Source of the DNA: a virus
Lineage: Duplodnaviria; Caudoviricetes
Virus record (IMG/VR): IMGVR_UViG_3300028588_000019
Location: 1-64,000 of that record
Length of the DNA: 64,000 bases
Reading direction: 5' to 3' (one strand)
This document shows positions 6,846-52,111 of the stretch, piece after piece. The position numbers and the translations under genes were made by a program. Within the stretch, counting starts at the first letter, position 1; every line of letters starts with the position of its first letter. Below the pieces are notes generated by a model, which saw nothing but the letters and a program-made list of their open reading frames with translations, was not told the DNA's origin and made no database searches.

Positions 6846-6874
6846 AGTATAGCTAGAATCCGGGAGCCAAGCAA
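6846..6874 (-). promoter_or_regulatory. Sigma70-like promoter for terS
   Basis: TTGCTT-17 nt-TATACT on the minus strand. Confidence 0.7.
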
Positions 6875-6986
6875 GCGCTAAATGCAAAACGGGGGCGGCA
6901 AGGGGGTAAATCCGCACGGCAAACGCGTGCAATCGGTAGGGTAGGGAGTTGGGAGGGTGCGCAGGACGCGCACCCTGTAGCGCGTT

Positions 6987-7535
6987 TTAAACGATTCGCG
7001 CCAAGCGTGCAGCAGCTTTGACAATCTGCTCGCGGATTTGCTCTTCGGTGTGGTAGTGGTCGATACCCAGCATGTCACGCTGACGGAAACCCTTAGGCAT
7101 CATTACTGTCACAGGAATTCCGAGCAAGTAGGCGGCAGTTGCGCCGGCAAGGTCGATTCCAGTTTGACCGCCACAGCGCACGCGCTCAATCTTATGCTCA
7201 TTGACCACAACACGCAGGATGCCGTACATGACTCGGTCGACGTCGCTTTGGTTGAGCTTGTACAGGTTCAGCGTGTACAAGCCGTTACCAGCGATGTTGA
7301 TTACCTTGACGGAACCCGGAGGCCGTGTCTTGATGTGGTCACTAACCGCACGCCCTGGATACAGCATTTCCTTAGTGACAGCAAAATACTTCTCGCCGGC
7401 AGCCTGTTTGGTCATCTTTTCGCCGCCGGTTGTGAAGTCCATTGCGATTGCGACAGTCAGGTCCGCTTCACGGGCGTTGCGGTAGGTTCGTCCCGTATAG
7501 CTGGACGATGGATGTTCGAGGATTTGGAGGCTCAT
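6987..7535 (-). CDS. SLOG-family (YpsA/MoCo-carrier-like) nucleotide-binding protein
   Basis: RT..NAREAD, INIAGN, CGGQTGIDLAG and PKGF motifs. Confidence 0.7.
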   Translation of the reverse strand: MSLQILEHPSSSYTGRTYRNAREADLTVAIAMDFTTGGEKMTKQAAGEKYFAVTKEMLYPGRAVSDHIKTRPPGSVKVINIAGNGLYTLNLYKLNQSDVDRVMYGILRVVVNEHKIERVRCGGQTGIDLAGATAAYLLGIPVTVMMPKGFRQRDMLGIDHYHTEEQIREQIVKAAARLARIV

Positions 7536-7951
7536 TTAGCCACCGTTTGCGTACGATCCATATACCACTCGATGGTTCGACGAGCTTCCTCCCATGTGTA
7601 GCAGACAGCGTAGAGGTAACCTTGTTCGGAAACATGCTGCCCGAATTCGATTTGCTTGTCGGACTCTTTACCGGCGCGCTGTTTCTTTTCCTTGTCGGTA
7701 GGCTTTTTCATTTCAATGAACAGGCCGAAGTTCATACCCCTGGCGCACGGCAGGAAGATGTCAGACACACCCGAGCGCACGCCTTCAGCTTTCAGCCTGG
7801 ACGCAACAGCGATGTTACGCTCGCCGCCGTTCGGGATTGCGAACATCCATTTCAGCTCAGGATGCTTCTCCCGGTTTTGTGCAGCCCAGCAGAAGAGAGC
7901 AACTTGGTGGGCGTGTTCGGTATTTGGTTTTGCGAGGTCTTCTGGTTTCAT
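7532..7951 (-). CDS. VRR-NUC domain nuclease
   Basis: FAIPNGG..R, EGVRSGVSDIFL, FIEMKK, Q..F pattern (PD-(D/E)xK). Confidence 0.85.
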   Translation of the reverse strand: MKPEDLAKPNTEHAHQVALFCWAAQNREKHPELKWMFAIPNGGERNIAVASRLKAEGVRSGVSDIFLPCARGMNFGLFIEMKKPTDKEKKQRAGKESDKQIEFGQHVSEQGYLYAVCYTWEEARRTIEWYMDRTQTVAK

Positions 7952-8232
7952 TTGACTAATGCTTCCGTAATTGGTTGACGCATAATATGCTGGTAATAGT
8001 GCTCCAGGCCGTGTTTTTTCATCCCCTCAACCAGCGCTTCAAACTTCAACGACTGGATGTAGTCTTTGTTTTTACGGTCGAGGGCCTGCTCGCAGACTTC
8101 TTGAAAGCTCACGCCGTATTGAACCCCTTCGTGGACCACGACTTGATACTGCGTCTTCGTATCTTCGAAGTCCCAACGGGCGTATTCCGCAAGACATTTT
8201 TCGATTACTTCGCGTGGCAGCTCGCGCATCAT
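7948..8232 (-). CDS. Hypothetical protein
   Basis: 94 aa with 4-nt overlaps on both sides. Confidence 0.6.
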   Translation of the reverse strand: MMRELPREVIEKCLAEYARWDFEDTKTQYQVVVHEGVQYGVSFQEVCEQALDRKNKDYIQSLKFEALVEGMKKHGLEHYYQHIMRQPITEALVK

Positions 8233-9626: not shown

Positions 9627-9627
9627 T

Positions 9628-12610: not shown

Positions 12611-13330
12611 GGGATCATGTATCCAGAGGGTTAAGGGGTGCAACAGGGACAACTGTACAGGGGAAATGCGGTTATGCAAAGGAATATTTTACGGGGTGGA
12701 ATTTGGACTGATCGTGGTGTAACTATCGGGTCCGAGATACGGAATTTTCGGTGGGGTATTTTTTCCGCAAATGGGTAATGTTGAGGTGAAAAAGGGAAGG
12801 GGGTGGGTCTAGTGGAACAGATAGAGGATGGGATTGGAGGGCAGTGATGGTTCTAGATAGGGAACTTTGGATTTTTTACCTAAAATATCACCCCATAGCC
12901 TAATATATAGGCATCCGCCCCGATTTACTTACGGCCACTATGTTCCACGCGTTCCACGCACCCTACAGCGCACGCGCGCACAGCACCCTCCTGCCCCACG
13001 CGCAAATTGTTCCACGCGCGCCTACCCCTGTTCCACGCGGTTTAAACCGCATACCTGCTGCCAGGGTGCGCCAGGGTGCACCAGGCACCCCAGCCGCAGC
13101 CCCATAGGTTTTAGCTATGTGTTCCAGTTTGCCCGATAGTTATATACAATCTGCCAAGGTGCACAACCGTGTATAGTTACACCTATGCGCTGCACACAAC
13201 GCTGCACGCAGTACCCCGCAAGGGGTGCGCTGTACCCTTGCTTTTTAACAACATAGCAGCTTACTACTAAGCAACATTACTATATAGCAATAATGCTGTA
13301 TAGCAACATACTTTACTATAGGTAAACATT
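12611..13330. other. Divergent non-coding control region; candidate origin or genome terminus
   Basis: No convincing ORF; plus strand is G-rich to about 12870, then C-rich; iteron-like repeats and a palindrome. Confidence 0.6.
12941..13050 (+). repeat. TGTTCCACGCG direct repeats and 14-bp palindrome
   Basis: Copies at 12941, 13008 and 13029, a partial copy at 12951; GCGGTTTAAACCGC at 13037-13050. Confidence 0.8.
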
Positions 13331-13900
13331 ATGCAAAACGCTAAATTCGGTAATACCAAAAACGCAATCGCACGTATGCAAGCACGCATTGCAGCTGTAC
13401 AAGCACTGCGCAGCAGCAAGCACGCTGCTCGGGTTGCAGCACGCAACCAACAAGCGTTTACCCTGCAAATGCAGCAGCTAGCAGCACAGTACAACGTTGC
13501 ACCCGAGCAGCTTAAAGCAATGCTTGGTGCTACCGACCGTGCAGCACGCGCTAACAGTGCAACTGCTAACCCTAGCACCGAACTGGTAACGGTTAACGGT
13601 GTTAGTTACAAACCATGCGCAGCAGTGCACGCACTGTGCGATTGGTTGGTTAGCACCGAACCAAACGCAACCCGTAAGCAAATGTTGGAGTTGTGCAAGG
13701 ATAATGGCATTAACGCAAGTACTGCTGCAACGCAGGTCGGTTTGTACCGTGCACGCGCTAAAGCAGCAGCAGACGCAGCACAGTAATGCAGCAGCACCCC
13801 GAACAGGGGTGCGCTTGCTAGTGTACCTTGGCAACAGGGTGCACCACCAAGCAACAACGTAGCAGATACAAGGTACGCAAGGCGCCCTACCCCTCGCTGG
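13151..13900. other. GA/TC-depleted island
   Basis: No GA or TC dinucleotide from 13151 to 13347; about 12 in the 456-bp ORF that follows (manual count). Confidence 0.9.
13331..13786 (+). CDS. Ala/Gln-rich protein with C-terminal wHTH-like domain (paralog family member 1)
   Basis: C-terminal AVHALCD...RKQMLELCKDNGINASTAATQ aligns with the proteins at 18422, 39782 and 40696. Confidence 0.7.
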   Translation: MQNAKFGNTKNAIARMQARIAAVQALRSSKHAARVAARNQQAFTLQMQQLAAQYNVAPEQLKAMLGATDRAARANSATANPSTELVTVNGVSYKPCAAVHALCDWLVSTEPNATRKQMLELCKDNGINASTAATQVGLYRARAKAAADAAQ

Positions 13901-14239
13901 GTAGCATCGCTGACCAGCACACCAATGGGTGTGAACAATTAGTAAGCTCTTTAACAATCTATAAGCTCTGCTCCCACGTTTACACCTTCACGAATAGGGT
14001 GTGGGATGACAGGCAACCCCCATGAGTAACCGCGTGCGTGTATGAGCCCGGGACCAAGGATTAAAAGCCGCATGGGGGAAAATATATTCAGTGGTCCGAC
14101 CTAACCTGAGTAACAGCTAGTACCTTATCACGAGAAGGTTAGTCAGCATGGTCGGGGTGTGCCCGCGTGACAGGCGGCATACTTATGTTCACTACCAAGT
14201 GCACATAAGTTGATAACCACACTAACAGGGGAATTAATC

Positions 14240-17237: not shown

Positions 17238-17291
17238 AGTAATCTCCTAGCTCGTTCTGCGGGCTAGTGGATGCACTTTAAATATGTGTAT
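17238..17291 (+). repeat. Two-hairpin intergenic element, copy 7 (degenerate)
   Basis: AGTAATCT + CTAGCTCG-TTCTG-CGGGCTAG + altered second hairpin ATGCAC..GTGTAT. Confidence 0.5.
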
Positions 17292-17353
17292 GCACTTTTG
17301 CTTTTGCCATGGTATAATAACCGTGTTGTTCAATTTCACGACAAGGATAAACC

Positions 17354-18122: not shown

Positions 18123-18421
18123 GACGCAGAGTCGACGCCAAAATAAATTGTAACAGTTCCGTCCAATTGCGCGCAAACAAGCCCACAGCACCGAAAATCG
18201 GTTAAACTGGGCGTGTTGGTGCAGTAATTAGCGGGGTTTTGGGGGGTTTTTGGGTGCGGGTGCGCCCTACCCCCTAACCTAGTGCGCAAAACAGCGCCTA
18301 GGGTGCTTGCCGTGCGCGGCAGCTACCTTGCGGGTTACATGGTAAGTCCCCACGTTGCAGCTGCAAGGGGGTTTACCGGGTAATCTTGCCCAAGTTCTTT
18401 CACAATCTAAGGAGAAACACC

Positions 18422-19198
18422 ATGGCACAAGCTCAAACCTCCGCAGCTCCTGGCAAAACCAAAGCTGCGCCACGCGCATCCCGCGCAAAGAAACCGCAAG
18501 CTGAGCAAGTCGTGCAGACGACTGGCAATGCAACGGGCCCTGGCGGCAAGAACATGCCAGAAGTCACCGCGCAGAACCAGAACCCGCCTGAAATCACGCA
18601 AGAGCAGCGTCAAGGTGAACGTCGTCAGCAACAGCAGAGCGCAATCGCGCGCTTTGCCAACCAGTCGATGGACACCCCGGCAGCTCACAACGTGCCTGAA
18701 GTCACGGACGAACAGCGTAAGCTGATCGCCTTCCAGGAGCAGATGCGCATCACCGCTGAGCAGTTCGGTGTGCAGCTTCCGCCAAACCTCGAAGACGTGC
18801 TCAACGGCAAGGTTGAACAGCCGCAAGCTCAAGGCGCGCAGGGTGCACAACGTGCTCCGCGCAACGCTGACAGCCAGAACGGTGTCACGCGCCCTGCCAA
18901 GGGTACGAAGACCGGTCAGGTGTGGGACGCAGCCGACGCAATCTCGACCAGCAAGAACGGCCAACCGGCCACGATTGCTGAAGTCAAAGAGAAGTTGGCT
19001 GGTAGCGTCAACGACGCCACGACCCGCACGCAGTATTCGCGGTGGCGTAACTACCACGGCATCAAAGGCCGGCTCGATGCTCAACCTCAGCAGCAACAAG
19101 CTGCCAGTCCTGAAGGACGTGACGAGGGTATCGAGAAAGCCTTCGGTCGTCGCAAGGACGATGTCGACCGTCGCCAAGCTGAACCAGCTGCACAGTAA
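18422..19198 (+). CDS. Gln/Ala-rich protein with C-terminal wHTH-like domain (paralog family member 2)
   Basis: AAGGAG RBS; NGVTRPAKGTKTGQVWDAAD...VNDATTRTQYSRWR. Confidence 0.8.
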   Translation: MAQAQTSAAPGKTKAAPRASRAKKPQAEQVVQTTGNATGPGGKNMPEVTAQNQNPPEITQEQRQGERRQQQQSAIARFANQSMDTPAAHNVPEVTDEQRKLIAFQEQMRITAEQFGVQLPPNLEDVLNGKVEQPQAQGAQGAQRAPRNADSQNGVTRPAKGTKTGQVWDAADAISTSKNGQPATIAEVKEKLAGSVNDATTRTQYSRWRNYHGIKGRLDAQPQQQQAASPEGRDEGIEKAFGRRKDDVDRRQAEPAAQ

Positions 19199-20331: not shown

Positions 20332-20650
20332 AGAAGTGAACAGTTTGCTGTTATTTGGGTTAGTATATGACAAATAATGGGTGCTTACCCTATGTAAACG
20401 TACTATAAATTAAGTAAAAAAGAAGATTATATATAGTATAGGTAGGAACACCCACCCTCCCGGGATGGTTTCGCAGCCCCAACACCACCCACAAATAACG
20501 CTAAAGCATAACTTGCTCGTTATTATGGCAATTAACTGTATATACTACCCTACCCCCGGCTGTTGTTTATTGCGTTAGCCCTGTTTCAGCACTATACAGG
20601 GGAGGGGTAGGGTGTTATATTAGTGGTTTCCCCACCACGCAAGGATCACC

Positions 20651-24525: not shown

Positions 24526-24592
24526 ACGCCTTAACGGGTGTATAATGGGGGTTGCAGTACACCCCGTTACCTTAACAATTTAGGAGTAGTAA

Positions 24593-27714: not shown

Positions 27715-27768
27715 ATTATTTAACGCAAGCGTTAAATATTCCACTTAACGCTTGCGTTATGCGCTATA

Positions 27769-37957: not shown

Positions 37958-39702
37958 TGTCTGTTCGCCTCATACCCCGCGACTATCAGCTGGAAACAGT
38001 TAATAGCATCTTTCGTTACTTTCAGGCAAACCGCACTGGCAATCCGGTTGCGGGGTTGCCCACGGGTACGGGCAAGGCTTTCTGCATTGCCTACTTCCTG
38101 TTCAAAGCTCTGGAGATGTATTCCAAGCAAAAGATTCTCGTTGCGACACACGTTAAAGAGCTTGTTGACCAGAACTATAAAGAGTTCATTGAAATCTGGC
38201 CGCAAGCTCCGGCAGGTGTCTACAGTGCCGGTTTGAAGCGCAAAGATACGCATCAGTCTGTTATCTTCTGCGGTATTGCGTCGATTGCTAAGAATATCGA
38301 AGCTTTCGGTCGGGTGGACTTAGTGATTGTGGACGAGTGCCACCTCATCAGCCTCAAAGAAGACTCGATGTACCGTGCGGTATTTGACGCGCTCAAGGTT
38401 ATTAATCCGAACCTTCGCATCATTGGTTTCACCGCCACCCCATGGCGCGCTGGTCAAGGTCGTCTTACCGAAGGCGATGGTATCTTTACCGATATGTGTA
38501 TCGACCTTACCGACATGGCGTCCTTTAACCGCTTTGTGCGGGAGGGGTACTTAGTCCCACTGGTGTCCAAGCCTACAAAGCTCTTGCTTGACGTTACAGG
38601 GGTTAAAATCACAGCAGGTGAGTATAACGAGAAATCGCTGGACTTGGCTGTAAATAAAGACCATATCACTTTTGCTGCACTTCAGGAGGCGCAGCAGTAT
38701 GCGTACGAAACAGGGCGCCGTAGTTGGATCATTTTTGCAACAAGCCTAGCGCATGCCGACAAGATTAAAGAAATGCTGGAATATCTCGGTGTGACTTGTC
38801 GTGTCGTGCACAGTAAAATGTCTTCGACCGAGCGTGACAACAACGTTGCTGACTGGAAAGCAATGAAGTTTACCGCCATCATTAACATGGGCGTCCTAAC
38901 AACTGGTGTGAACCATCCTGCGCTAGACTTAATTGTCATGCTGCGTCCAACAATGTCGTCTGTCCTTTGGGTACAGATGCTCGGTCGCGGGACTCGTCCG
39001 TTATTTGTTCGTGAAGGTTACGACTTAACAACCATCCAAGGGCGACTCGATTCTATTGCTGCTAGTGCAAAACAGTATTGTCTAGTAATGGACTTTGCGG
39101 GTAACATCAAGCGCTTGGGACCCGTCAACGACCCGGTCATCCCCCGCAAGAAGGGTGCATCAAAAGGCGAAGTCCCGATTAAAGAATGCGACGCTTGCGG
39201 GATGTATAACCACATCAGTGCGAAGTGGTGCGGTGGCACCCCATTCAAAACGAATGAAGGTTGCGGCGCGGAGTTTGTATTCCGTGTACAGCTGAAGCAG
39301 GAAGCAAGCACCGAGGCTGTCGTTCGTGAGGACGACTTACCTGTTATTGAAACCTTCCCTGTGATGCAAACGACCGCCTCAGTGCATCGAAAAGAGGGTA
39401 AGCCTGACAGCTTGAAGGTGACGTACTATTGCTTCACCAAAAAGTTCACAAAGTACATTCTAATTGAGCATCCCGGATTTGGCCGTCGCAAAGCTGAAAT
39501 GTGGTGGAGTGAGCGAACGAACTTGACTTTACCCATCACAACGGCTGAGGCAATGGAAATATTCACGGAGCTTAGCGTACCGACTCACATCCAAGTGTGG
39601 ACAAACGCTCCGTATCCTGAAATTATGAAGGAGTGCTTCATGGGCGAATTTGCAAATAGCGTCCCCGGTAACGAACTTGCAAAGAATGATATTCCGTTCT
39701 AA
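37957..39702 (+). CDS. SF2 helicase (RadD/YejH-like) with Zn finger
   Basis: PTGTGKA, DECH, TATP, LTTG, QMLGRG.R, KECDAC. Confidence 0.92.
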   Translation: MSVRLIPRDYQLETVNSIFRYFQANRTGNPVAGLPTGTGKAFCIAYFLFKALEMYSKQKILVATHVKELVDQNYKEFIEIWPQAPAGVYSAGLKRKDTHQSVIFCGIASIAKNIEAFGRVDLVIVDECHLISLKEDSMYRAVFDALKVINPNLRIIGFTATPWRAGQGRLTEGDGIFTDMCIDLTDMASFNRFVREGYLVPLVSKPTKLLLDVTGVKITAGEYNEKSLDLAVNKDHITFAALQEAQQYAYETGRRSWIIFATSLAHADKIKEMLEYLGVTCRVVHSKMSSTERDNNVADWKAMKFTAIINMGVLTTGVNHPALDLIVMLRPTMSSVLWVQMLGRGTRPLFVREGYDLTTIQGRLDSIAASAKQYCLVMDFAGNIKRLGPVNDPVIPRKKGASKGEVPIKECDACGMYNHISAKWCGGTPFKTNEGCGAEFVFRVQLKQEASTEAVVREDDLPVIETFPVMQTTASVHRKEGKPDSLKVTYYCFTKKFTKYILIEHPGFGRRKAEMWWSERTNLTLPITTAEAMEIFTELSVPTHIQVWTNAPYPEIMKECFMGEFANSVPGNELAKNDIPF

Positions 39703-39781
39703 AAATAAATGTGTTTGCGCTGCCGCATGTGCTGTACAATGTGTGCTTGTGGTAGCGCAAACCTTAAAGGAGATGTGACTT

Positions 39782-40534
39782 ATGTATGTTGTCATAGACC
39801 GCGAATACTTGTGTGTCAAGTACAAGCACCCAAACCAATCCGCCATTAACAATCTGGCGTGCATTGAAATCCCGTACCAGCCAATCGTCGTTGTTAGCGC
39901 GACTGATAAAGATAGCTTCGAGTCTTTTACGGACTACGAACTGAAGGTTATGTACGAAAACCTGTGCGGACTGCTGTACTCGGGCTTTCGTCGTCCGGAC
40001 CTCGTCACAAGCGTAATCCGTTTGATTGGTATGTTGTCTGAAACCGACTTGGTCCCTCGTGAAGTTGACCAACAACTGGACACCATCAAGGACCCGGACG
40101 ATGGCCCGTTCCAATACGTGCGCGGTTCAGCTGTACCGAAAAAGCAGAACGAGCTCTGGCTACCACCTACGATGGTCACTCGCGACGGCGTCATCCCAAA
40201 CGGAAAAAAGTACCATGTACCAGACCCCGTTAAACGCGTGCAACCTCTGTACAGCCCCGTATATACCAACCCCGCACTGTTTGCAGCGCCTAGCACCCCT
40301 GCCGCGCGTGCAAACAGCACCGGGGAACCCAGCGCACCAGCGGCACCGCCCAAAGCGGGTAGCACAACAGGTCGGGTATGGGCAATTGCGGACGACTGCT
40401 ACCAGAAGCACTCGGTTCTCGACAAGACCCTGCGCAAGATGGTTGCTGACGAATGCGAAGCGCAGGGTATCAATTCCTCCACCATGAGCGTGCAGTTCAG
40501 CAAATGGAAGGGACACAAATTGGCACAGTCCTAA
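39782..40534 (+). CDS. Protein with C-terminal wHTH-like domain (paralog family member 3)
   Basis: PKAGSTTGRVWAIAD...ECEAQGINSSTMSVQFSKWK. Confidence 0.75.
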   Translation: MYVVIDREYLCVKYKHPNQSAINNLACIEIPYQPIVVVSATDKDSFESFTDYELKVMYENLCGLLYSGFRRPDLVTSVIRLIGMLSETDLVPREVDQQLDTIKDPDDGPFQYVRGSAVPKKQNELWLPPTMVTRDGVIPNGKKYHVPDPVKRVQPLYSPVYTNPALFAAPSTPAARANSTGEPSAPAAPPKAGSTTGRVWAIADDCYQKHSVLDKTLRKMVADECEAQGINSSTMSVQFSKWKGHKLAQS

Positions 40535-40695: not shown

Positions 40696-41292
40696 ATGTC
40701 CGAGCAAAAATCCCAAGAGCAAATCGCAGCAGAAGCTGCTGAAACCAAAGCCAAAGCCGACGCCGCCAAAGCGGAAGCGAAAGCTGCCAAAGACAAGGCC
40801 GCCGCTGAAGCCAAGGAAAAGAAACAAGCCGCCGCTGCCGAAGCCAAGCGCCTGAAGGACGAAGCCAAGGCCGCCGAGAAAGCCGAAAAAGAAGCCAAAG
40901 CTGCCGCTGCTGCCAAAGAAAAAGCCGACAAAGCCGCTGCCGCTGCTGCCGAAAAAGCCGCTACTGCCGCTGCCAAGGTCAAGGTCGTCATGCCATCGCA
41001 AAACGGTATCACCCGTCCGAAGACCGGCACCAAGACCGGCGACGTCTGGGCCCTGGCCGACAAGCTGTCCACCGAAAAGAATGCGCCGATCGCTATCGCT
41101 GAACTGCTGCCAGCCGGCGCCGCCGCAGGCCTGAACGACGCGACCATCCGCACGCAATACGCACGCTGGAAAACCTTCAACGGCATCTTCGGTTCGGTCA
41201 AAGCTGCACCGAAAGCCCCTGAAACCCCGGCACCGACCGCGCAGACCGAACAGACCGCCGGCGCCGAAGCAACCGAACCGGCCGCCGCCTAA
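40696..41292 (+). CDS. Histone H1-like (Ala/Lys/Glu) protein with wHTH-like domain (paralog family member 4)
   Basis: About 95 aa of AKE repeats, then NGITRPKTGTKTGDVWALAD...LNDATIRTQYARWK. Confidence 0.85.
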   Translation: MSEQKSQEQIAAEAAETKAKADAAKAEAKAAKDKAAAEAKEKKQAAAAEAKRLKDEAKAAEKAEKEAKAAAAAKEKADKAAAAAAEKAATAAAKVKVVMPSQNGITRPKTGTKTGDVWALADKLSTEKNAPIAIAELLPAGAAAGLNDATIRTQYARWKTFNGIFGSVKAAPKAPETPAPTAQTEQTAGAEATEPAAA

Positions 41293-41584: not shown

Positions 41585-42313
41585 TTGCAAGTCATCCCAA
41601 TCAATAAGCAACCGATCGAAAAGCGCAACAACGAGGCGCGTTCGCTCGAAGTCCATTCCATTTTCCTCACCATTCAAGGTGAGGGTCCATTCACCGGATA
41701 CCCAGCAGTATTCATCCGCCTCGCGGGCTGCAACCTGCAATGCCCTTCGTGCGACACCGACTACACCAACGGTCGCAAGGGTATGTCCGTCGAAGCAATT
41801 GTGTCGGAAGTGAAAAGCGTGCACTCGGAATGCAATGCGCGGCCCATTGTGGTCATCACCGGTGGCGAACCCTTCCGTCAAAACATCGAACAACTGGTTG
41901 AACTGCTGTTGCGCCAGGACTTTACCGTCCAGGTCGAGACCAACGGTACGCTTGCACCACTCAACGTCCAAGCACCAGTGTGGTTCAATCGCAAGTTTCA
42001 CATCGTATGCAGCCCGAAGGCTGGCAAGGTACACAACTGGATTGCCAATCGCGCCGACTGCTTCAAGTACGTCCTGAGCGCCGACAGTGTCGACCCGGAA
42101 GACGGCCTGCCAATCCTTGCGCTTAACCACACTGCCTCGCCGCGCGTTGCTCGTCCATTCTTCAGCACGAAGAACAAGCCCATCTATCTGCAACCGATGG
42201 ACGCGAAAGACCAAGCTAAGAACGATGCTAACGTCTGCGCAGTCCTGCAAAGCTGCATCAAACACGGCTATATCTTCCAACTGCAAACGCACAAATACAT
42301 CGGGGTCGAATGA
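41585..42313 (+). CDS. queE: 7-carboxy-7-deazaguanine synthase (radical SAM)
   Basis: IFLTIQGEG, FIRLAGCNLQCPSCDT, VITGGEP, VETNG, CSPK, LQTHK. Confidence 0.95.
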   Translation: MQVIPINKQPIEKRNNEARSLEVHSIFLTIQGEGPFTGYPAVFIRLAGCNLQCPSCDTDYTNGRKGMSVEAIVSEVKSVHSECNARPIVVITGGEPFRQNIEQLVELLLRQDFTVQVETNGTLAPLNVQAPVWFNRKFHIVCSPKAGKVHNWIANRADCFKYVLSADSVDPEDGLPILALNHTASPRVARPFFSTKNKPIYLQPMDAKDQAKNDANVCAVLQSCIKHGYIFQLQTHKYIGVE

Positions 42314-42513: not shown

Positions 42514-42797
42514 GGCTCGAAGACTGGAGTGTGGTCGCTTCACCATTGTCAGGTTACCGTGACCCGGAGCAATGGTCCCCTAAGCTGTACGGCACGGTGT
42601 ACGGTAATCCAAAGTTCGCGGACGGTTCGCTTATTTTTACGAGCCGCATTGTTACGGTGGACAAAAAGGCTGGCACTGCAACCACCAAGTCCGGCAGCGT
42701 CTATGTGCTGGGTGAAGTGTCCGCAGAATACGAAAACATTCATCCAAACGCGCGTGAGCGCTTCTTCAATCAAGGGGTTAGCAATGTTCAAAATTAA
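42510..42797 (+). CDS. Conserved small phage protein in que cluster
   Basis: LEDWSVV...LYG.VYG.PKF.DG..I.TS.IV...T.SGS.Y.LG. Confidence 0.7.
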   Translation: MRLEDWSVVASPLSGYRDPEQWSPKLYGTVYGNPKFADGSLIFTSRIVTVDKKAGTATTKSGSVYVLGEVSAEYENIHPNARERFFNQGVSNVQN

Positions 42798-43581
42798 AGC
42801 ACTGGTCGTCCTGTCCGGCGGCCAAGATTCGACCACCTGCGCATTCTGGGCCAAGCAGCAGGGTTACGAGATCCACGCGGTGACTTTCGATTACGGTCAG
42901 AAGCACGTCATCGAAATCGAAGCGGCCAAGAAGATCGCGGAACTCGTCGGCGCCGTGTCGCACGAGATCATCAAGCTGGGCGACGGCGTCCTGGCCGGTA
43001 CGTCCCCGCTCACCAACAAAGCGGAAGTCCTGGAACAATACGCCGACCACCAATCGCTGCCAGGCGGTCTGGAAAAGACCTTCGTACCGCTGCGCAATCA
43101 GCTGTTCTTGACCGTTGCTGCGAACCGCGCCTACGTCATGGGCTGTACCGTGCTGGTCACCGGCGTCTGTCAAGAAGACAGCGGAGGCTATCCGGACTGC
43201 CGCGCCACCTTCATCAGCGCCGTACAGGACGCAACCAACTATGGTACGTTTACCGGCGAACCCGGTACGCTGCCACCCCTGCGCATCCTGACCCCGCTGA
43301 TGTACCTGACCAAGGCCGACAGCGTGCGCCTGGCGCGTGCCATCCCGGGCTGCTACGATGCGCTGGCGTATTCCCACACCAGCTACGACGGCGCTTACCC
43401 GCCCGTAGGTAAAGACCATGCAACCCTCCTGCGCGCAAAAGGCTTCGAAGAAGCAGGCTTGCCTGACCCGCTGGTCGTGCGTGCATGGAAAGAGGGTCTG
43501 ATGGACCTTCCAGATACGAAGGTTTACAACGACTTCGAAGACCAAATGGACGCTGCTCGCGAAGCTGCTGAGGGCGACTAA
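42784..43581 (+). CDS. queC: 7-cyano-7-deazaguanine (preQ0) synthase
   Basis: VLSGGQDSTT, FDYGQ.H..E, TFVPLRN, GYPDCR, TPLMYLTKA. Confidence 0.95.
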   Translation: MFKIKALVVLSGGQDSTTCAFWAKQQGYEIHAVTFDYGQKHVIEIEAAKKIAELVGAVSHEIIKLGDGVLAGTSPLTNKAEVLEQYADHQSLPGGLEKTFVPLRNQLFLTVAANRAYVMGCTVLVTGVCQEDSGGYPDCRATFISAVQDATNYGTFTGEPGTLPPLRILTPLMYLTKADSVRLARAIPGCYDALAYSHTSYDGAYPPVGKDHATLLRAKGFEEAGLPDPLVVRAWKEGLMDLPDTKVYNDFEDQMDAAREAAEGD

Positions 43582-43582
43582 C

Positions 43583-43777
43583 ATGGCAATCGGCGGCGGT
43601 ATTCGTAAAGGCAATGGCTGCGTTACCGCCGCCAAGCCCGAGTCCATTTACGAGGCGCATCGTAAGCTCGAGAAGAAGTACACTGAAAAGTGCCAGCAAC
43701 TTGAGCGTGCAGAGAAGAAAATCTTAATTCTGAACGAGCGCATTAAAAAACTTTCTGCAAAGAAGAATCCAAAATGA
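43583..43777 (+). CDS. Small coiled-coil protein
   Basis: 64 aa filling the gap between queC and queD. Confidence 0.55.
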   Translation: MAIGGGIRKGNGCVTAAKPESIYEAHRKLEKKYTEKCQQLERAEKKILILNERIKKLSAKKNPK

Positions 43778-44298
43778 GCAAATATCGCAGTACCAAGACC
43801 TACGGTCACGAGCTCGGACTGTCGGCGTGCTTCCGCCAGCATCGTGCAACGCATTCGCACTGCTCGATGCTGCACGGTTACGCGCTCGCGTTCACTTTCA
43901 CGTTCGAAGCAGACACGCTGGACGACCGCAATTGGGTCCAGGACTTCGGAGGCCTGAAAGAACTGAAGCAAAAGCTTCAACGGACGTTCGACCACAAGCT
44001 GGTCGTCGCGGAAGACGATCCGAAGGTGCACGAGATTTGCCGTTTGGACGGCTACGTCGCGGACGTACTTGTGCTGCCTGCGGTCGGCTGCGAAGCGTTC
44101 GCGAAACAGGCTTACGACATGGCCTGTGAAGTTATTCGTGACGCAAACAAGGCTGAGGTTGCTCGTCTCCAGTCTGAGCACAAGCCTGGCACCCAATGGC
44201 CAACCGCTGGTCGTCAGCGCGTCCGCGTCGTGTCGGTCGAGTGCCGCGAGCACGGCGCCAACAGCGCAATTTACATCGGTGGCGAGGATGAAGCATAA
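43774..44298 (+). CDS. queD: 6-carboxytetrahydropterin synthase
   Basis: HCSMLHGY, WVQDFG.LK, FDHK, ECREHGANSA. Confidence 0.93.
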   Translation: MSKYRSTKTYGHELGLSACFRQHRATHSHCSMLHGYALAFTFTFEADTLDDRNWVQDFGGLKELKQKLQRTFDHKLVVAEDDPKVHEICRLDGYVADVLVLPAVGCEAFAKQAYDMACEVIRDANKAEVARLQSEHKPGTQWPTAGRQRVRVVSVECREHGANSAIYIGGEDEA

Positions 44299-44527
44299 AC
44301 TCATCTATGACAGGCGAGCAGGCGGTTACTCAGCAATCTGTTCGCTTTATAACCAACTCGGGGTGGCGGAATTCGTCATCACTATGGACCATAACGAAGG
44401 ATTTACGCATAGCGTGCTTCGTGTTCCAGACGAGAAGGTTATTGTCACCTGGCGCAAACTTGGCAAGGACATGCACAACTGTCCTGTCGAACCTAATAAA
44501 TTTATTGTTACGAAATCACTAGCATGA
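44288..44527 (+). CDS. Small hypothetical protein
   Basis: GAGG RBS; starts MKHKLIY; overlaps both neighbours. Confidence 0.55.
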   Translation: MKHKLIYDRRAGGYSAICSLYNQLGVAEFVITMDHNEGFTHSVLRVPDEKVIVTWRKLGKDMHNCPVEPNKFIVTKSLA

Positions 44528-45147
44528 ACATTAAAGAAAACGAGCAAGGTCAAAAGCACTACATCCGCGTGAAAGCTGTCGAACAACTGCTACGCACGAT
44601 CCCGGGCACACTAGCACCTGCACCAGCAGAATTCGGACAGCTGACCGGCGCACTGCGCGAAGGCGTCCAGGACACGCCGAATCGCGTTGCCAAGGCTTGG
44701 GCGGAATGGACCAGCGGTTATAGCATTGACATCGCAGAACTGCTGAAGGTGTTCGAAGACGGCGCCGAGGGCTACGATGAGATGGTTGTGGTCAAAGACA
44801 TCCCCATCTACAGCAAGTGCGAGCATCACCTCGCAGACATCTTCGGCACGGCAACCATCGCGTATATCCCGGACGGCAAGGTTGTCGGCCTGTCCAAGCT
44901 GTCCCGCCTGGCAGATGCGTTCGCAAAGCGTCTGCAAGTGCAGGAGCGCCTGACGGTGCAGATCGCTGACGCGCTGATGGAACATCTGCAACCGAAAGGC
45001 TGTGGCGTTATCGTCCGTGCCAGACATATGTGCATGGAATCGCGGGGCATCTGCCAGCAAGGTCACCACACTGTGACTTCCGCATTGCGCGGTGTGTTCA
45101 AGGATCAACCTGAAACCCGCGCCGAATTCCTGGCGCACGGAAAATAA
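44524..45147 (+). CDS. folE: GTP cyclohydrolase I
   Basis: DTPNRVAKA, CEHHL, VVGLSKL.R, RLQVQERLT, HMCM..RG. Confidence 0.97.
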   Translation: MNIKENEQGQKHYIRVKAVEQLLRTIPGTLAPAPAEFGQLTGALREGVQDTPNRVAKAWAEWTSGYSIDIAELLKVFEDGAEGYDEMVVVKDIPIYSKCEHHLADIFGTATIAYIPDGKVVGLSKLSRLADAFAKRLQVQERLTVQIADALMEHLQPKGCGVIVRARHMCMESRGICQQGHHTVTSALRGVFKDQPETRAEFLAHGK

Positions 45148-45667: not shown

Positions 45668-46231
45668 ATGAATCAAAAATATAACTTCTCGCTGTCCAAG
45701 AATGCGCTGTTCGGTATCGGTGCAGTGATCCTGCTGGCACTGGCAATCATGGTTGCCGTCTGGCCATCCAAGCCGACGCAAAGCTACCGTGAAGGTGCGG
45801 GCACCACGCGCGAGGGTACGGGCATCTATCGCGAAGGCATCGGCGGCGCTGCACCAGTTGCCCACAACTACCAACCGGAGCAGTACGCGCATCCCGCACC
45901 AGTACAAGCGCAACCCGCTCCGGTTGTGGTGCAACAAGCTGCATCGTCGCGCGGCACGGACATGCTGACCGGTGCCGCTATCGGTGCGCTCGCAACCCAT
46001 GCGCTGACGTCCAAACCGGCTGCACCCGCGCCGGAACGCATCGTCGAACGTCGTACTGTGGTCAAGTACGTGCAGACCCCTCGCCCGAGCGTGCGTCCGC
46101 AGAAACCATACGTGCCTGCATACAAGTCCGATCGCTACGTGTCGACGTATAAAGCACCGACCAGCTACAGGCCAGCGAGCTATTCCAGCGGGTCGTCATA
46201 TCGCTCGACAGCAAGCTTCAGCAAGCGTTAA
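45668..46231 (+). CDS. Membrane-anchored protein with low-complexity S/Y/R-rich tail
   Basis: N-terminal TM, GAAIGALA segment, basic Ser/Tyr tail. Confidence 0.65.
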   Translation: MNQKYNFSLSKNALFGIGAVILLALAIMVAVWPSKPTQSYREGAGTTREGTGIYREGIGGAAPVAHNYQPEQYAHPAPVQAQPAPVVVQQAASSRGTDMLTGAAIGALATHALTSKPAAPAPERIVERRTVVKYVQTPRPSVRPQKPYVPAYKSDRYVSTYKAPTSYRPASYSSGSSYRSTASFSKR

Positions 46232-46346
46232 AACGCGCTACAAGCGCGTGCAATCCGGGGGTGCAGTGTGCTATGCTGTACCCCTTTTTAACGCGCTGCG
46301 CACCCTTGCCGCAAGCGCAAACCGCATTCCAGGGCCAGTACAAGCT

Positions 46347-47273
46347 ATGAAACTTTTCCTCGCTGCTGTCTACACCAATCATTACATGGAGACGCAGAAC
46401 CGCTACGAGAAGCTGAACGAAGCTGAGCAGCACATTATGTCGGATGTCCCGAACATCCTTGAATCATATCACTACGTTAAGAACCAGTCCTTTGTAGATA
46501 CAATGAGGTCGCGCGGTGCAAAGGTCTTTCTTGACTCGGGCGCATTCTCCGCGCACTCGCTGAACGCCCATATTGATATCAACCAGTATTGCGACTACAT
46601 CATCCGCAACAGGGATATCCTGCGCGTCGAAGATGGCGCAGTAATGGCTTCGGTGCTTGACGGTATCGGTGACCCGCTCAAGACCTACCAGCACCAGCTT
46701 CACATGGAAAAGATGGGTGCAAAGCCTCTCCCCTGCTTCCACTACGGCGAAGACATCCGTTACCTCGAGTTCTACGTCAAGAACTATGACTACATTACGA
46801 TCGGTGGTCTGGTGCGGCGCACGTCCGAAGCACAGAAGGTGTGGTTAGACCGCATTTGGCCGTACATGCTGGACGGTAGCGGTCGTCCAAAGTTGAAAGT
46901 CCATGCCTTCGGTATGACGGCACCGTGGCTGATGGAACGATATCCATGGTACAGTGTCGACTCCTCGTCTTGGATTCAGGCAGCGGCGTTCGGTTCCATC
47001 TTTACCAGCGAGCACGGACCAATTGCAGTGTCCAGCACTTCGCCTTCCCGGCACGACTACGGCAGGCACATAACCACACTACCCGACGTCGAGCGTCAAT
47101 ACATGGAGCAAATGCTCGCTAAAAAAGGTTTTGAAACTGAGCGTCTAGGCACAGTTTACGAATCCCGGGCAGTGTATAATATGCTGGGGTACATGGAATT
47201 AAACGACCTGATCCTCGAGCGGATCAAAGGCAAGCAGACATTCGATTGCAGTAAAATTCAGGAGCTATTCTAA
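46347..47273 (+). CDS. dpdA: DNA guanine transglycosylase DpdA
   Basis: TGT-barrel motifs FLDSGAFS, LD.IGD, FHYGE, VHAFG, YSVDSSSW; adjacent to que genes. Confidence 0.88.
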   Translation: MKLFLAAVYTNHYMETQNRYEKLNEAEQHIMSDVPNILESYHYVKNQSFVDTMRSRGAKVFLDSGAFSAHSLNAHIDINQYCDYIIRNRDILRVEDGAVMASVLDGIGDPLKTYQHQLHMEKMGAKPLPCFHYGEDIRYLEFYVKNYDYITIGGLVRRTSEAQKVWLDRIWPYMLDGSGRPKLKVHAFGMTAPWLMERYPWYSVDSSSWIQAAAFGSIFTSEHGPIAVSSTSPSRHDYGRHITTLPDVERQYMEQMLAKKGFETERLGTVYESRAVYNMLGYMELNDLILERIKGKQTFDCSKIQELF

Positions 47274-47692
47274 TGTGTGTAATTGACAGCTTTAACGGGG
47301 AGTTCCGCTTCCTGTCCAACTTTGCTTATTCTGAATTCACTTTGTACGGTACGCGCTACCCGACCGTTGAGCACGCCTACCAAGCATTGAAGTGTGTCAG
47401 CCAGCGCGACCACGACGGGATTGCGACTGCGCGAACTCCAGGCGTTGCCAAGAAGCTCGGTCGTGTAGTTCAGCTGCGCGAAGATTGGGAACAGTCAAAA
47501 GATGCGGTTATGATAGCATGTGTGTACGCCAAGTTCAAACAGAACCCGCATCTAGCCGAGCAACTGCGCAACACTCGCGGATGCACGCTAATCGAAGGGA
47601 ATACGTGGGGTGACCATTATTGGGGCGTCTGTAAGGGGACCGGGCAGAACATGCTTGGACAAATTCTAATGCGAGTAAGGGACATGGTTTAA
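47273..47692 (+). CDS. NADAR (YbiA-like) ADP-ribose hydrolase
   Basis: FLSNF, YPTVEHAYQA.K, AKKLG, LREDWE, KFKQN..L..L, EGNTWGD.YWG, GQNMLG.ILM..R. Confidence 0.93.
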   Translation: MCVIDSFNGEFRFLSNFAYSEFTLYGTRYPTVEHAYQALKCVSQRDHDGIATARTPGVAKKLGRVVQLREDWEQSKDAVMIACVYAKFKQNPHLAEQLRNTRGCTLIEGNTWGDHYWGVCKGTGQNMLGQILMRVRDMV

Positions 47693-49448: not shown

Positions 49449-49450
49449 TC

Positions 49451-51517
49451 ATGCGGGCAGATAGCGTAGGATTATTCTGGGAGGACGTTGCTAAAGTCAA
49501 GCCTCCCAAGAAAGAAAAAGTAAAGCGCACTCCACCCGAGAAGTTTTGGACGGTGGAAGGTTACATTCCGCCTGGTGCACTGGAGGAAGCGCAGTCGTAC
49601 GAGTACAAGTTCTTCAACGATATGGAACTGTACCAGGCAATGTTGCGCGGTGAACGCTTGGTGTATGACTTGGAGGTCTACCCGAATTATTTCCTAGCAG
49701 GCTTTAAAGGCATTGATAGCGGAAAGTATGTGTTCCTCGAAGAGATTCACCACGATCTTGGCGACCTCCCTGAACGCACTTACAACCGCGAAAAGCTCAA
49801 GTGGATCCTTGAAAAGTTTACGCTGATTAGCTTCAACGGCAAGAAGTACGACGATATCATTTCTGCGCTTGCAGTGCACCCGCAATTCGGCTGCATTGAC
49901 TTCTGGAACGCAACCTGCATGCTGATCCAGGAGGGTTTGCGCGACCGTGATATTTATTCGCACTACTCTGTCAAGAAACTTGAAATTGACAGTATCGACA
50001 TTAAAGAGCTTACAGCGCAAGGGCCTAGTTTGAAGAAATGCGCAGCACGCTTGCATGCCCCACGATTGCAAGACCTGCCGTTCATCCCCGGTACATACCT
50101 CACGGACAGGCAAATTGTTGTGTTGCGCCGATACAACATCAACGACTTGGACAACACGCAGATTGTTTACGAGTCCAAGCTCGACATTATTGCGATTCGT
50201 GAGCAGAAGGGTAAAGAATACGGCGTAGACCTGCGGTCTAGTTCCGATGCGCAAATGGCTGAAGCGATTGTTGGCGCTGAGATTCGGCGTATGACCGGAC
50301 GCAAGTATATCCAGCGCACCAAGATTGACCCCGGTACAGCTTACAAATACCGCGCGCCAACGTGGGTGAACTTTAAGACTCCGATGATGCAAGACTTCTT
50401 GCGTCGATTGCAGAAGCTGGACTTTGTGGTCAACCATTGGGACGGCGGTTTGCTCATGCCGCCTGAGCTCGATAAGTACACTATTAAGATTGCAGAGGGT
50501 AGCTATGCTGTCGGTATCGGTGGGCTGCACAGCCAGGAGAAGTCGGTTGCATGGTACGCAGACGACGAATACGAACTGGTTGACACCGACGCGACGTCCT
50601 ACTATCCCACACTGATCCTTAACGCGGGTCTGAAACCGCAATCGCTCGGTGACGCGTTCATTCAGATTTATCGTCGCATCGTTCAAGAGCGTGTTGCAGC
50701 AAAGCACGCAGGCGACGACATCACCGCGCAGTGCTTGAAGATTGTCATTAACGGCACGTTCGGTAAACTTGGCAATATGTACTCAATCATGTACGCGCCC
50801 CACCTCATGTTGCAGGTTACGATTACGGGTCAGCTGTCGCTGCTGATGCTCATTGAGCGCTTTGAGCTTGCAGGTATTCGCGTCATTAATGCTAACACCG
50901 ACGGTGTGGTTGCTCGTCCGCACAAGTCCCAGCGCGAAACCTTTAACGCTATCGTCAAGCAGTGGGAACGCGAAACGGGCTTCGGTACGGAAGAAACGCT
51001 CTACAAAGCGTACATGGCTAAAGACGTGAATAACTACCTTGCACAGTACGTTAAGCCTGAAAAGGGTCAGCACTTTAAGACAAAGGGTCTGTACGCTAAA
51101 ACCTCGTCGGCGAAGAATGCCGTCAATGAGGTCTGTATCCTTGCGCTGAAGGAATATCTCATCAACAAGACCTCCGTCGAAGAAACAATTCGCAACTGCA
51201 CAAAGCCATCCATGTTTACCACAATGCGCGAGACGCACATGGGCGGTGGAGCGGTCAAAGGGGACCAGTACCTCGGCAAAGTGGTTCGTTGGTATTACGC
51301 GAAAGGTGAGACCGGAGAGATTCAGGTCGTTAAGACGGGTAACAAGGTTGCACGCTCGGACGGTGCAATTCCACTGATGGATTTACCAGACGAGCTACCG
51401 GAGGATTTAGACTACGACTGGTACATCGCTGAGGCGAATAAGATCCTTGGTAAGATCGGTACAGTGGCGGAAGAGGGGGAGTCTGACGAAGAAGACGAAG
51501 AAACTGAAACCGCTTAA
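49451..51517 (+). CDS. Family B DNA polymerase
   Basis: Exo DLE and FNG..YD; motif A DATSYYP, motif B KIVINGTFGK, motif C NTDG. Confidence 0.9.
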   Translation: MRADSVGLFWEDVAKVKPPKKEKVKRTPPEKFWTVEGYIPPGALEEAQSYEYKFFNDMELYQAMLRGERLVYDLEVYPNYFLAGFKGIDSGKYVFLEEIHHDLGDLPERTYNREKLKWILEKFTLISFNGKKYDDIISALAVHPQFGCIDFWNATCMLIQEGLRDRDIYSHYSVKKLEIDSIDIKELTAQGPSLKKCAARLHAPRLQDLPFIPGTYLTDRQIVVLRRYNINDLDNTQIVYESKLDIIAIREQKGKEYGVDLRSSSDAQMAEAIVGAEIRRMTGRKYIQRTKIDPGTAYKYRAPTWVNFKTPMMQDFLRRLQKLDFVVNHWDGGLLMPPELDKYTIKIAEGSYAVGIGGLHSQEKSVAWYADDEYELVDTDATSYYPTLILNAGLKPQSLGDAFIQIYRRIVQERVAAKHAGDDITAQCLKIVINGTFGKLGNMYSIMYAPHLMLQVTITGQLSLLMLIERFELAGIRVINANTDGVVARPHKSQRETFNAIVKQWERETGFGTEETLYKAYMAKDVNNYLAQYVKPEKGQHFKTKGLYAKTSSAKNAVNEVCILALKEYLINKTSVEETIRNCTKPSMFTTMRETHMGGGAVKGDQYLGKVVRWYYAKGETGEIQVVKTGNKVARSDGAIPLMDLPDELPEDLDYDWYIAEANKILGKIGTVAEEGESDEEDEETETA

Positions 51518-51598
51518 AACGCGTTTGCCGCGTTTTGTTTGCGCGGTAGGGGGTAAGTGTAGGGGGTACGGGCTTTGCAGCGTGTACCCCCTTTGCCG

Positions 51599-52111
51599 TT
51601 ACTGCGCTGGTGCGTTGCAGGTGTCCCGCGCAGCGTTGTACAGGTCGATCAGGAGGTTGCGTTCTCGCACAAGTCTTGCACTGTCTGCTGCGGCGCGGAG
51701 AACGTCTTCAGAAGCTTCTGGCACCAGATCGGTTCCTCCTTCTTCGACACCGAATCCGGCAGTGGTGGGATTTGAGGGCGCTTGGTTTCCAGGAGCCGGA
51801 CTTGCGGGGCAGCGCAACCCGCTAGTGCCAGCACGAGCCCGAGCAATAGCTTTTTCAATTGCATCTTCATGTTTAGCTTTCAGGATGGATTCGTTGGTGG
51901 TGAGGGTTTGGACTTGAGCTTTCAACGCTGCTTCGCGCTGTTCGGCAAGCTTGTTCAGTTTGACTTGAGCGTCTTTCGCGATCTTGTCGTCGGATGCAAT
52001 TTGAGCAAGCAATTCTTGCGCACCGTCGTGACGCCCGTACTGGAATAGACCATAACCCAGCAGCGCAGCAAGCAGAAGGCCCACGAACCAGTCCAACAGG
52101 TCGGACTTCAT
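51599..52111 (-). CDS. Rz: Inner-membrane spanin (Rz-like)
   Basis: N-terminal TM and coiled coil, directly after the endolysin. Confidence 0.85.
   Translation of the reverse strand: MKSDLLDWFVGLLLAALLGYGLFQYGRHDGAQELLAQIASDDKIAKDAQVKLNKLAEQREAALKAQVQTLTTNESILKAKHEDAIEKAIARARAGTSGLRCPASPAPGNQAPSNPTTAGFGVEEGGTDLVPEASEDVLRAAADSARLVRERNLLIDLYNAARDTCNAPAQ
51649..51870 (-). CDS. Rz1: Outer-membrane lipoprotein spanin (Rz1-like), embedded in Rz
   Basis: Lipobox LALAGC and Pro-rich mature part, in an alternate frame within Rz. Confidence 0.8.
   Translation of the reverse strand: MKMQLKKLLLGLVLALAGCAAPQVRLLETKRPQIPPLPDSVSKKEEPIWCQKLLKTFSAPQQTVQDLCENATS

Follow-up and report, generated by a model that had tools for sequence, protein, structure and literature searches.

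The window analysed here, namely bases 1-64000 of a 72,474-bp virus record in IMG/VR, carries dispersed islands of DNA in which the dinucleotide step GA is missing or nearly missing from both strands (GA/TC-free islands), together with dpdA, the gene for a DNA guanine transglycosylase, and the genes for preQ0 synthesis. As the record bears a 127-bp terminal repeat, it was taken as a circularly assembled and complete phage genome. Two segments of the window, 16 kb and 7.8 kb long, gave no nucleotide match in INPHARED. The gene map consists of a plus-strand early/middle block (13331-51517) and a minus-strand late block that extends from 51599 across the ends of the record to 12610; the blocks diverge at 12.6-13.3 kb and converge at 51.5 kb. 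Genes follow one another in a Queuovirinae-like order: primase-polymerase/helicase, Cas4-like nuclease, helicase, queE, queC, queD, folE, dpdA, NADAR-domain protein, sliding clamp and DNA polymerase.

The dpdA gene (46347-47273, plus strand) matches phrog_887 with an E value of 9e-79. Its product is 65% identical to DpdA of phage CAjan, 63% to that of NP1, 58% to that of iggy and 57% to that of 9g, the range being 57-66% across the set including Seurat. The preQ0 synthesis genes lie on the same strand (queE, 41585-42313; queC, 42784-43581; queD, 43774-44298; folE, 44524-45147) with PHROG E values of 1e-38 to 1e-75, and all genes required for a phage 7-deazaguanine modification system are present in the window. 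In iggy, DpdA inserts dPreQ0 at GA alone, 97% of the GA sites are modified, and this modification shields the DNA from EcoRV and SalI (PMC10484667). In CAjan, DpdA inserts preQ0 at both GA and GGC (PMC7544227). DpdA is the presumed reader of the GA step that is avoided in the islands described below.

GA or TC occurs once per 8.6-8.7 nt on average, and its genome-wide odds ratio is near 1 (0.93 for GA and 0.92 for TC), indicating that the step itself is not rare in this genome. The original prediction had listed a family of GA/TC-free runs, and all of them were found: 18198-18347 (149 nt), 20517-20586 (69 nt), 22813-22891 (78 nt), 24525-24584 (59 nt), 39698-39770 (72 nt), 40246-40325 (79 nt) and 51506-51624 (118 nt), with 74 nt free at 46254-46328 (two TC in 46232-46346) and a weaker island at 6864-6990, of which 6864-6911 is free (47 nt) and which holds 6 GA/TC in 127 nt against 14.7 expected. 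The genome-wide comparison with a composition-matched null that it had called for was then made with 100 first-order Markov genomes. Runs of at least 59 nt numbered 15 against 2.1 expected, and those of at least 69 nt numbered 10 against 0.55; three runs were at least 100 nt long, a length never reached in the simulated genomes, in which the longest run was 93 nt. Chance alone should produce about two runs of close to 60 nt. When the bases were shuffled within each island, the probability of obtaining no site was at most 0.0007 for every island. The excess is specific to GA/TC. The other nine of the ten strand-symmetric dinucleotide classes gave no comparable outliers, and AG/CT, which is matched to GA/TC in base composition, gave no outlier runs in the phage genome. 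A general depletion of all intergenic DNA was ruled out by the many spacers with normal counts. In the early mini-gene array (14.5-17.2 kb), the spacers are structured and yet not poor in GA/TC, indicating that RNA structure alone does not impose the avoidance.

For runs inside open reading frames (ORFs), the null kept the protein and redrew synonymous codons from the genome's own usage. Under this null the island at 40.2 kb holds 7 GA/TC against a mean of 18.5 (P<0.0005) and that at 22.8 kb holds 7 against 16.9 (P=0.0005). The run at 29.0 kb is weak and was not taken as significant, with 0 against 3.1 (P=0.02). A Gln-rich stretch at 36.6 kb was rejected as an island, since its 8 GA/TC against a mean of 8.6 (P=0.5) are compositional.

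An effect on a whole gene was observed for the first early gene (13331-13786, plus strand), which codes for a 151-aa protein and is purged of GA/TC and GGC/GCC at synonymous sites. It holds 12 GA/TC against 35.4 expected from synonymous codons (z -6.0), and 8 of the 12 that remain are forced by Asp or Glu codons. When every di- and trinucleotide was scored against the same null, GA/TC was the most depleted dinucleotide (z -5.7 to -6.4) both here and in two relatives, of which one has a protein only 41% identical. The most depleted trinucleotide was GCC/GGC, with 1 copy against 19.1 in this phage and 0 against 21 and 8 against 22 in the relatives, and GGT/ACC was enriched. These two avoided words, GA and GGC, are the two motifs of CAjan. 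Avoidance of GGC/GCC is limited to the first early gene, the dispersed islands holding 35 copies against 47 expected. Among the homologs of the early gene in metagenomic relatives, the GA/TC z score was -6.3 (L018), -6.3 (L020), -2.5 (L019) and +0.4 (L017). The last of these, at L017:3646-4122, is 62% identical and has normal GA/TC and GGC counts.

The product of the first early gene belongs to a set of four paralogs (13331-13786, 18422-19198, 39782-40534 and 40696-41292) with a common C-terminal three-helix domain of the pattern G-I/L-N..T...Q-Y/F..W/Y-K/R. Three of the four genes stand directly behind an island, and about 300 nt separate the fourth from the island at 40.2 kb, which precedes it. 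The iggy counterpart of the 40696-41292 protein is annotated as a putative transcriptional activator. An AlphaFold2 model of the 151-aa protein (pLDDT 80) shows a long N-terminal helix followed by a C-terminal beta-hairpin and three helices. Searches of Pfam, PHROGs, PDB sequences and Foldseek gave no function for this protein or its paralogs; by Foldseek there was no significant PDB match, and the weak matches (E >1) were mostly helix-turn-helix or homeodomain proteins.

Conservation was examined in metagenomic relatives found via the polymerase, the 151-aa protein and DpdA. Among them are three complete genomes from IMG/VR, G002 (74 kb), G003 (69 kb) and G004 (95 kb), onto which the proteins of this phage were mapped, and whose DpdA is 78%, 75% and 69% identical, respectively, to that of this phage. 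Outlier GA/TC-free runs were detected in all three (five in G002, up to 362 nt; six in G003, up to 395 nt; five in G004, up to 168 nt), and none of the three carries AG/CT outliers. Runs in relatives lie at the same junctions as in the window: the early control region with the 151-aa gene, upstream of the 258-aa paralog gene and of the homolog of the gene at 20651, the junction at 24.5 kb, the primase linker, the spacer after the primase gene, after the helicase gene and inside the gene that follows it, upstream of dpdA, at the polymerase convergence and upstream of terS. Exceptions were seen in G002, where no long run follows the polymerase gene, and in G004, where none precedes dpdA. Since homologous islands at these junctions are only about 45-55% identical to those of this phage, the conserved feature is the absence of GA/TC and not a particular sequence.

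We also surveyed whole genomes of phages with and without dpdA, counting the gaps longer than the length at which 0.5 gaps would be expected in a genome. Outlier GA/TC runs were present in 8 of the 11 dpdA phages, including this phage (4), iggy (5), NP1 (4), DoCa3 (5) and Vibrio phage ALK (2). In nine phages without dpdA (lambda, T1, HK97, P22, N4, T7, YuA, D3 and Xp10) there was none, the largest gap reaching 0.60-0.93 of the threshold, and the effect is confined to dpdA phages in this survey. AG/CT outliers were absent from the 19 genomes scored together and from Seurat. The sample is small and phylogenetically clumped; counted per lineage, the result is 4 of 6 dpdA lineages against 0 of 9 controls. 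The islands of iggy lie in a divergent region with CCAGG repeats, in a terminator-bearing spacer, at a convergent junction and in the gene after the helicase; this last gene and NP1 gp41 are the counterparts of the gene holding the 40.2-kb island. Windows of iggy predicted to be unmodified are 60074-60225, 3179-3286, 27694-27854 and 39300-39456. In the iggy record, the annotated coding sequence MN029011 39259-39663, which lies over a 157-nt run, has an odd, low-complexity-looking product, and ORF scoring prefers 39299-39883, so that the annotation may be in the wrong frame.

The largest island of the window (12945-13906, about 960 bp) comprises the first early gene and both its flanks and holds 22 GA/TC against about 111 expected. 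Its non-coding part (12945-13330), in the divergent region between the minus-strand late and plus-strand early blocks, contains 7 against 44.7 expected and has GA/TC-free runs of 197 nt and of 91 nt; CCARGGTGCRC repeats are present there, as is a TG plus TATAGT -10-like site at 13172. Runs of 362-447 nt were found at the same place in G002, G003 and L020. Directly after the gene, on the plus strand, two strong hairpins (13787-13906; fold z -5.2 against shuffles) hold 3 GA/TC against 13.9 expected, and one of them bears a further CAGGGTGCACCA repeat. The repeats, in the form CCARGGTGCRC(CA), thus stand on both sides of the early gene (13062-13083, 13155-13166 and 13821-13846), two of them in tandem 10 nt apart, and could be operators or origin iterons. 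In iggy, CCAGG(G)CA repeats occur in its own GA/TC-free divergent region (MN029011 60074-60457).

Several plus-strand islands of the early/middle block are promoter-like or precede a gene. That at 17270-17330, upstream of the ORF starting at 17354 or 17480, is a 60-nt run with TGG-TATAAT (-10-like site at 17313). The GC-rich and highly structured island at 18135-18405, upstream of the 258-aa paralog gene (18422-19198), contains the 149-nt run and 8 GA/TC against 31.4 expected. Alignment with three relatives showed a conserved block CTTGCCGYGCG...TGGTAAG plus a hairpin, and its counterparts have runs of 144 nt in L017, 60 and 59 nt in L018, 120 nt in L019 and 70 nt in G003. A sigma-54-like match in this island was dropped, as it is not conserved in the aligned relatives. 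Upstream of gene 20651-21316, the island at 20465-20643 (69-nt run; 5 GA/TC against 20.7 expected) forms a long hairpin with CCCTACCCC/GGGGTAGGG arms and carries TATA-rich -10-like hexamers; runs of 59 nt (G003) and 70 nt (G004) precede the homologous gene. The 59-nt run at 24525-24584, in a 67-nt spacer with a single GA/TC, reads TG-TATAAT (-10-like site at 24541), then a GGGGGT...ACCCC hairpin and then the ribosome-binding site of gene 24593-24799. A 116-nt run lies at the corresponding junction in G003, and the TATAATGGGGTGCAGTAC core of this island also occurs in G002, after its primase gene. At 30664-30713, directly after the primase gene, a 49-nt run contains TG-TAAAAT (-10-like site at 30678), and the run at this junction is 69 nt long in G002 and 63 nt in G003. 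Between the helicase gene and the 250-aa paralog gene, the 72-nt run at 39698-39770 ends at the ribosome-binding site and folds into a 15-bp stem with two G-U pairs, with TG-TACAAT in the loop (-10-like site at 39735; fold z -5.3). The runs at this junction are 55, 72 and 56 nt in G002, G003 and G004, with 47-69% identity.

Three plus-strand features lie within the linker-coding sequence of a gene. The island at 22731-22947, inside gene 22690-23016 (108 aa, with a zinc-ribbon-like N-terminus), shows no excess of RNA structure over shuffles (z 0.1); no matching run was found in G002, and its conservation was not seen in the relatives. A short run at 29021-29078, weak in this phage, lies in the Pro-rich linker of the primase-polymerase/helicase gene (28035-30635); at the equivalent protein position the G002 primase gene has runs of 93 and 66 nt. 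The island at 40195-40404, in the Pro/Ala-rich linker of gene 39782-40534, contains two CGCGTGCAA copies and a stable hairpin (z -4.0), and the same gene elsewhere has runs of 81 and 65 nt (G002), 168 nt (G004), 67 nt (L014), 111 nt (NP1 gp41) and 157 nt (iggy).

Upstream of dpdA, the plus-strand island at 46228-46346 holds 2 GA/TC against 13.8 expected and contains, in order, a stop codon inside TTAAAACGCGCTACA, a small hairpin, CGCGTGCAA, a terminator-like hairpin GGGGTGCAG...CTGTACCCC, TTTTT and CCCTTGCCG. A hairpin of different sequence stands at the same place in L014 and L015, and the runs there are 71 nt in G002 and 72 nt in G003. Directly 5' of this island is a 187-aa ORF (45668-46231), and directly 3' of dpdA is the gene for the NADAR-domain protein (47273-47692; Pfam E 3e-28). 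Where the DNA polymerase and Rz genes converge, the island at 51495-51644 (118-nt run; fold z -3.2) has two hairpins, AAAACGCG..CGCGTTTT and AGGGGGTAC..GTACCCCCT, which, judged by their sequence, could serve as bidirectional terminators; the corresponding runs in relatives are 110 nt (L003), 89 nt (L015/G003) and 140 nt (G004). The weak minus-strand island at 6864-6990, between gene 6987-7535 and terS (6223-6810), starts at the upstream stop codon with TTAAAACGCGCTACA and continues with a AGGGTGCGC/GCGCACCCT hairpin and then ACGCGTTTGCCG (fold z -2.0). Upstream of terS, relatives have runs of 116 nt (L020) and 71, 60 and 74 nt (G002, G003 and G004). The coordinates bear out the placement of islands that had been proposed from the sequence, namely at promoter-like sites, at the polymerase/Rz convergence, upstream of dpdA and terS, and inside ORFs.

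The words said to be shared among islands proved to be real and enriched when counted against expectation. A 15-mer, TTAAAACGCGCTACA, is present at 6976 (minus) and 46228 (plus) with 0 expected, and a 12-mer, ACGCGTTTGCCG, at 6917 (minus) and 51519 (plus) with 0.02 expected. Although the islands make up 2.7% of the genome, they contain 3 of the 3 genome copies of TTAAAACGCG, 4 of the 6 of CGCGTGCAA, 7 of the 11 of GGGTGCGC, 4 of the 4 of CCCTACCCC and 5 of the 6 of TACCCCCT; GGG/CCC is enriched 3.2-fold. At 6.9, 46.2 and 51.5 kb, TTAAAACGCG contains the TAA stop codon of the gene upstream and forms the start of a small hairpin. The GC-rich island hairpins are of two types, GGGGT...ACCCC or GGGTGCGC...GCGCACCC, and several islands fold much better than shuffles (z -5.3, -5.2, -4.0 and -3.2). 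A hairpin with a T-run is present at 46258-46290, followed by TTTTT, and at 51516-51536, as A-run, hairpin and T-run; other island hairpins are followed only by TTGCCG or TTTGCCG and were not listed by a generic terminator scan. The 3' hairpin arm is followed by a conserved CYTTGCCR at 6896 (minus), 18303, 46304 and 51590 and in homologous islands of L003, L014, L015 and L017-L019, with no -10 element downstream of it. The enriched words fall into several classes (GGGGT/ACCCC hairpin arms, GGGTGCGC, stop-codon-anchored AAACGCG hairpins and CYTTGCCR), and as homologous islands share little sequence, a single protein-binding motif common to all islands was ruled out. Because many of the shared words lie in hairpins that start at stop codons, they resemble elements of terminators or of RNA more than a single shared protein site. 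By standard models, an Rfam scan of the window gave no family at the gathering score and ARAGORN gave no tRNA; hammerhead ribozyme and tRNA-mimic candidates (19.4-24.8 kb and 41.3 kb) were not confirmed.

A second regularity concerns promoter-like sites. Co-directional TG plus -10-like hexamers number 16 in the genome, and five of them (13172, 17313, 24541, 30678 and 39735) fall inside GA/TC-free runs, which in this test cover 2.8% of the genome, against 0.4 expected (about 12-fold). At the -35 positions the islands read TTGC-type hexamers and not TTGACA, the canonical -35, which itself contains GA. The original prediction had interpreted the islands as unmodified protein-loading or structural sites. 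Protein loading is plausible for several islands, given the enrichment of -10-like sites and the island upstream of terS, but less so for the many words within stop-codon hairpins. For structural sites and for programmed nicks, the sequence offers no support. That the islands stay unmodified is well supported, albeit indirectly, by the avoidance of a mapped DpdA target, the presence of DpdA with the preQ0 pathway, the purged early gene and the restriction of the effect to dpdA phages.

We favour, with a probability of roughly 0.6, the reading that the islands are cis-elements from which the DpdA motif is excluded, which would let them function with or without DNA modification. In 7-deazaguanine, N7, a common major-groove contact, is removed and a substituent is placed in the groove. 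Selection would hold cis-acting DNA elements free of GA on either strand, as GA is the step at which DpdA of this phage most probably swaps guanine for 7-deazaguanine, probably dPreQ0. The elements covered would be TG-extended -10 promoters, stop-codon-anchored terminator-like hairpins, the convergent transcription junction, the region upstream of terS, a few linker-embedded elements, and the first early gene with its control region. Motif-free stretches would then stay ordinary DNA within a densely marked genome (about one site per 8.6 bp), and sites that are read by host RNA polymerase, phage regulators or terminase, or for which helix stability counts, as in termination, would behave alike on both DNA states, that is, injected DNA, which would be fully modified, and newly replicated DNA, not yet modified. 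A link of the islands to DpdA is probable; the functional reason proposed here supposes that modification at the islands would be harmful.

Several observations weigh against this reading. GA modification in this uncultured phage is what we infer from the 58-66% DpdA identity and the avoided words. Generic scans for sigma-70 promoters and for terminators gave no enrichment relative to shuffles, and the promoter and terminator assignments are putative, being made from sequence patterns. Several islands are mainly hairpins, expected to act at the RNA level, where the relevance of DNA modification is not obvious. CAjan (KP064094), Seurat (NC_027378; first 50 kb) and 9g (NC_024146) gave 0 GA/TC outliers; as these phages modify GA-containing DNA and yet have no islands, the constraint is not universal, and the island architecture is lineage- or host-dependent, the E. 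coli Queuovirinae being without islands though CAjan modifies GA. Some of the long runs in NP1 and DoCa3 (144 nt) and ALK (133 nt) lie in coding sequence rich in Gln, Pro and Ala and are compositional, the remaining ones being non-coding or significant against the synonymous null. L017 has lost the early-gene purge but retains dispersed islands (a 144-nt run upstream of its 244-aa paralog gene), so that the purge of the whole gene can be gained or lost independently of these.

Other explanations were weighed on the same evidence. The islands might be shelters from host defences directed against modified DNA, such as type IV nucleases and 7-deazaguanine-excising glycosylases; unmarked DNA would escape both cutting and conversion to abasic sites, and the first gene and its signals would stay expressible. 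This is unlikely for the set, even though the entire early gene is purged of GA and GGC on both strands with low Asp/Glu content too, the purge varies among close relatives as an arms-race trait would (it is lost in L017), and defences targeting modified phage DNA are described in two sources (PMC12191111; bioRxiv 10.1101/2025.10.29.685425). Scattered islands of 60-150 nt could not stop a nuclease in a genome with about 8,400 GA/TC sites; moreover, the dispersed islands lie on transcription signals and not on genes, and the searches gave no anti-defence function for the 151-aa protein. For the whole-gene purge, defence escape and faster transcription are both live alternatives. A constraint at the RNA level, by which transcripts avoid GA and UC through a ribonuclease or a hairpin requirement, would be in line with the very stable hairpins of most islands (z -3.2 to -5.3), with G-U pairs in some stems, which are relevant in RNA only, and with avoidance on both strands, as GA avoided on one stem arm forces UC avoidance on the other. 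We consider it improbable, because long unstructured AT-rich promoter DNA (13240-13330) is also without GA and TC, other structured spacers of the same genome are undepleted, and the effect tracks dpdA; in addition, the second avoided word of the early gene, GGC/GCC, is the second DpdA motif.

Slightly more improbable is the idea that the islands are sites inaccessible to DpdA, either occupied by protein or extruded as hairpins, where GA would stay unprotected and GA-containing restriction sites would have been removed. Many restriction sites do contain GA/TC, the protection of iggy DNA from EcoRV and SalI depends on dPreQ0 at GA (PMC10484667), and the islands are rich in hairpins. GA would need to be lost only inside restriction sites, however, and yet all GA is absent over 60-400 nt; restriction sites without GA are unprotected throughout the genome, and with 97% of its GA sites modified, iggy has no reported refractory regions (PMC10484667). 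That the runs are chance or compositional artefacts is refuted for the set as a whole and has very little probability left, standing only for individual short runs: about two runs of some 60 nt are expected, amino-acid composition explains the 36.6-kb Gln-rich stretch and the 29.0-kb run, and the coding runs of NP1, DoCa3 and ALK noted above are of the same kind. Against it stand the 15 runs where 2.1 are expected, the three above 100 nt where none is, the shuffle probabilities of at most 0.0007 per island, the conservation of positions in relatives, and the absence of outliers in the nine controls and for AG/CT.

Keeping cis-elements free of the DpdA motif resembles known systems in part. Partial, motif-specific hypermodification is a shield against restriction enzymes and Cas9. 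Phage genomes also avoid restriction sites and methylation motifs, as in palindrome avoidance and the scarcity of GATC, and there, as here, selection removes a short word on which an enzyme acts. Classical avoidance extends over the whole genome and has a host enzyme as its target; the avoidance in this phage is local and apparently directed against the phage's own modifying enzyme. Dam methylation at promoter GATC regulates pap, the Mu mom promoter and IS10, where protein binding likewise depends on whether a regulatory region is modified, and vertebrate CpG islands offer an analogy, though no more, in that promoter regions differ from the bulk genome in their mark. Unlike these systems, in which the motif is retained and methylation varied, here the motif is deleted and the unmarked state would be encoded in the sequence. 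The closest systems, those of iggy and CAjan, have the same folE, queD, queE, queC and dpdA set in Queuovirinae-like order beside the clamp and DNA polymerase genes, and the words avoided in the window (GA, and GGC in the early gene) are the mapped targets of their enzymes. The published work on them covers the positions of marks and not motif-free stretches; CAjan itself is without islands, and those of iggy have apparently gone unremarked. Text searches inside these two papers (PMC10484667, PMC7544227) found promoters, intergenic regions and depleted regions unmentioned, and full-text searches of PMC and bioRxiv found neither motif-free islands nor promoter avoidance described for deazaguanine phages.

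Practical leads follow. The target of a DpdA could be guessed from sequence alone (here GA, with GGC as a second word), promoters and terminators could be located in uncultured phages, and candidate stretches open to restriction enzymes, Cas9 or probes could be picked out on otherwise protected phage DNA. As cultured iggy and NP1 have the same pattern, the idea is open to direct bench testing. More tentatively, phages with motif-specific 7-deazaguanine may carry a conserved, sequence-encoded map of unmarked DNA, which would take in promoters and terminators, sites of packaging or origin and the gene expressed first, and the four DNA-binding-like paralogs may read these pads and thereby drive the temporal programme. 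In that case, both the specificity of a DpdA (GA, or GA plus GGC) and the regulatory map of a phage could be predicted from run-length scans alone. To our knowledge, the cost of hypermodification to the phage's own DNA transactions has not yet been addressed. Such a cost would leave its footprint in the genome as conserved motif-free islands, which would show the elements that are intolerant of 7-deazaguanine.

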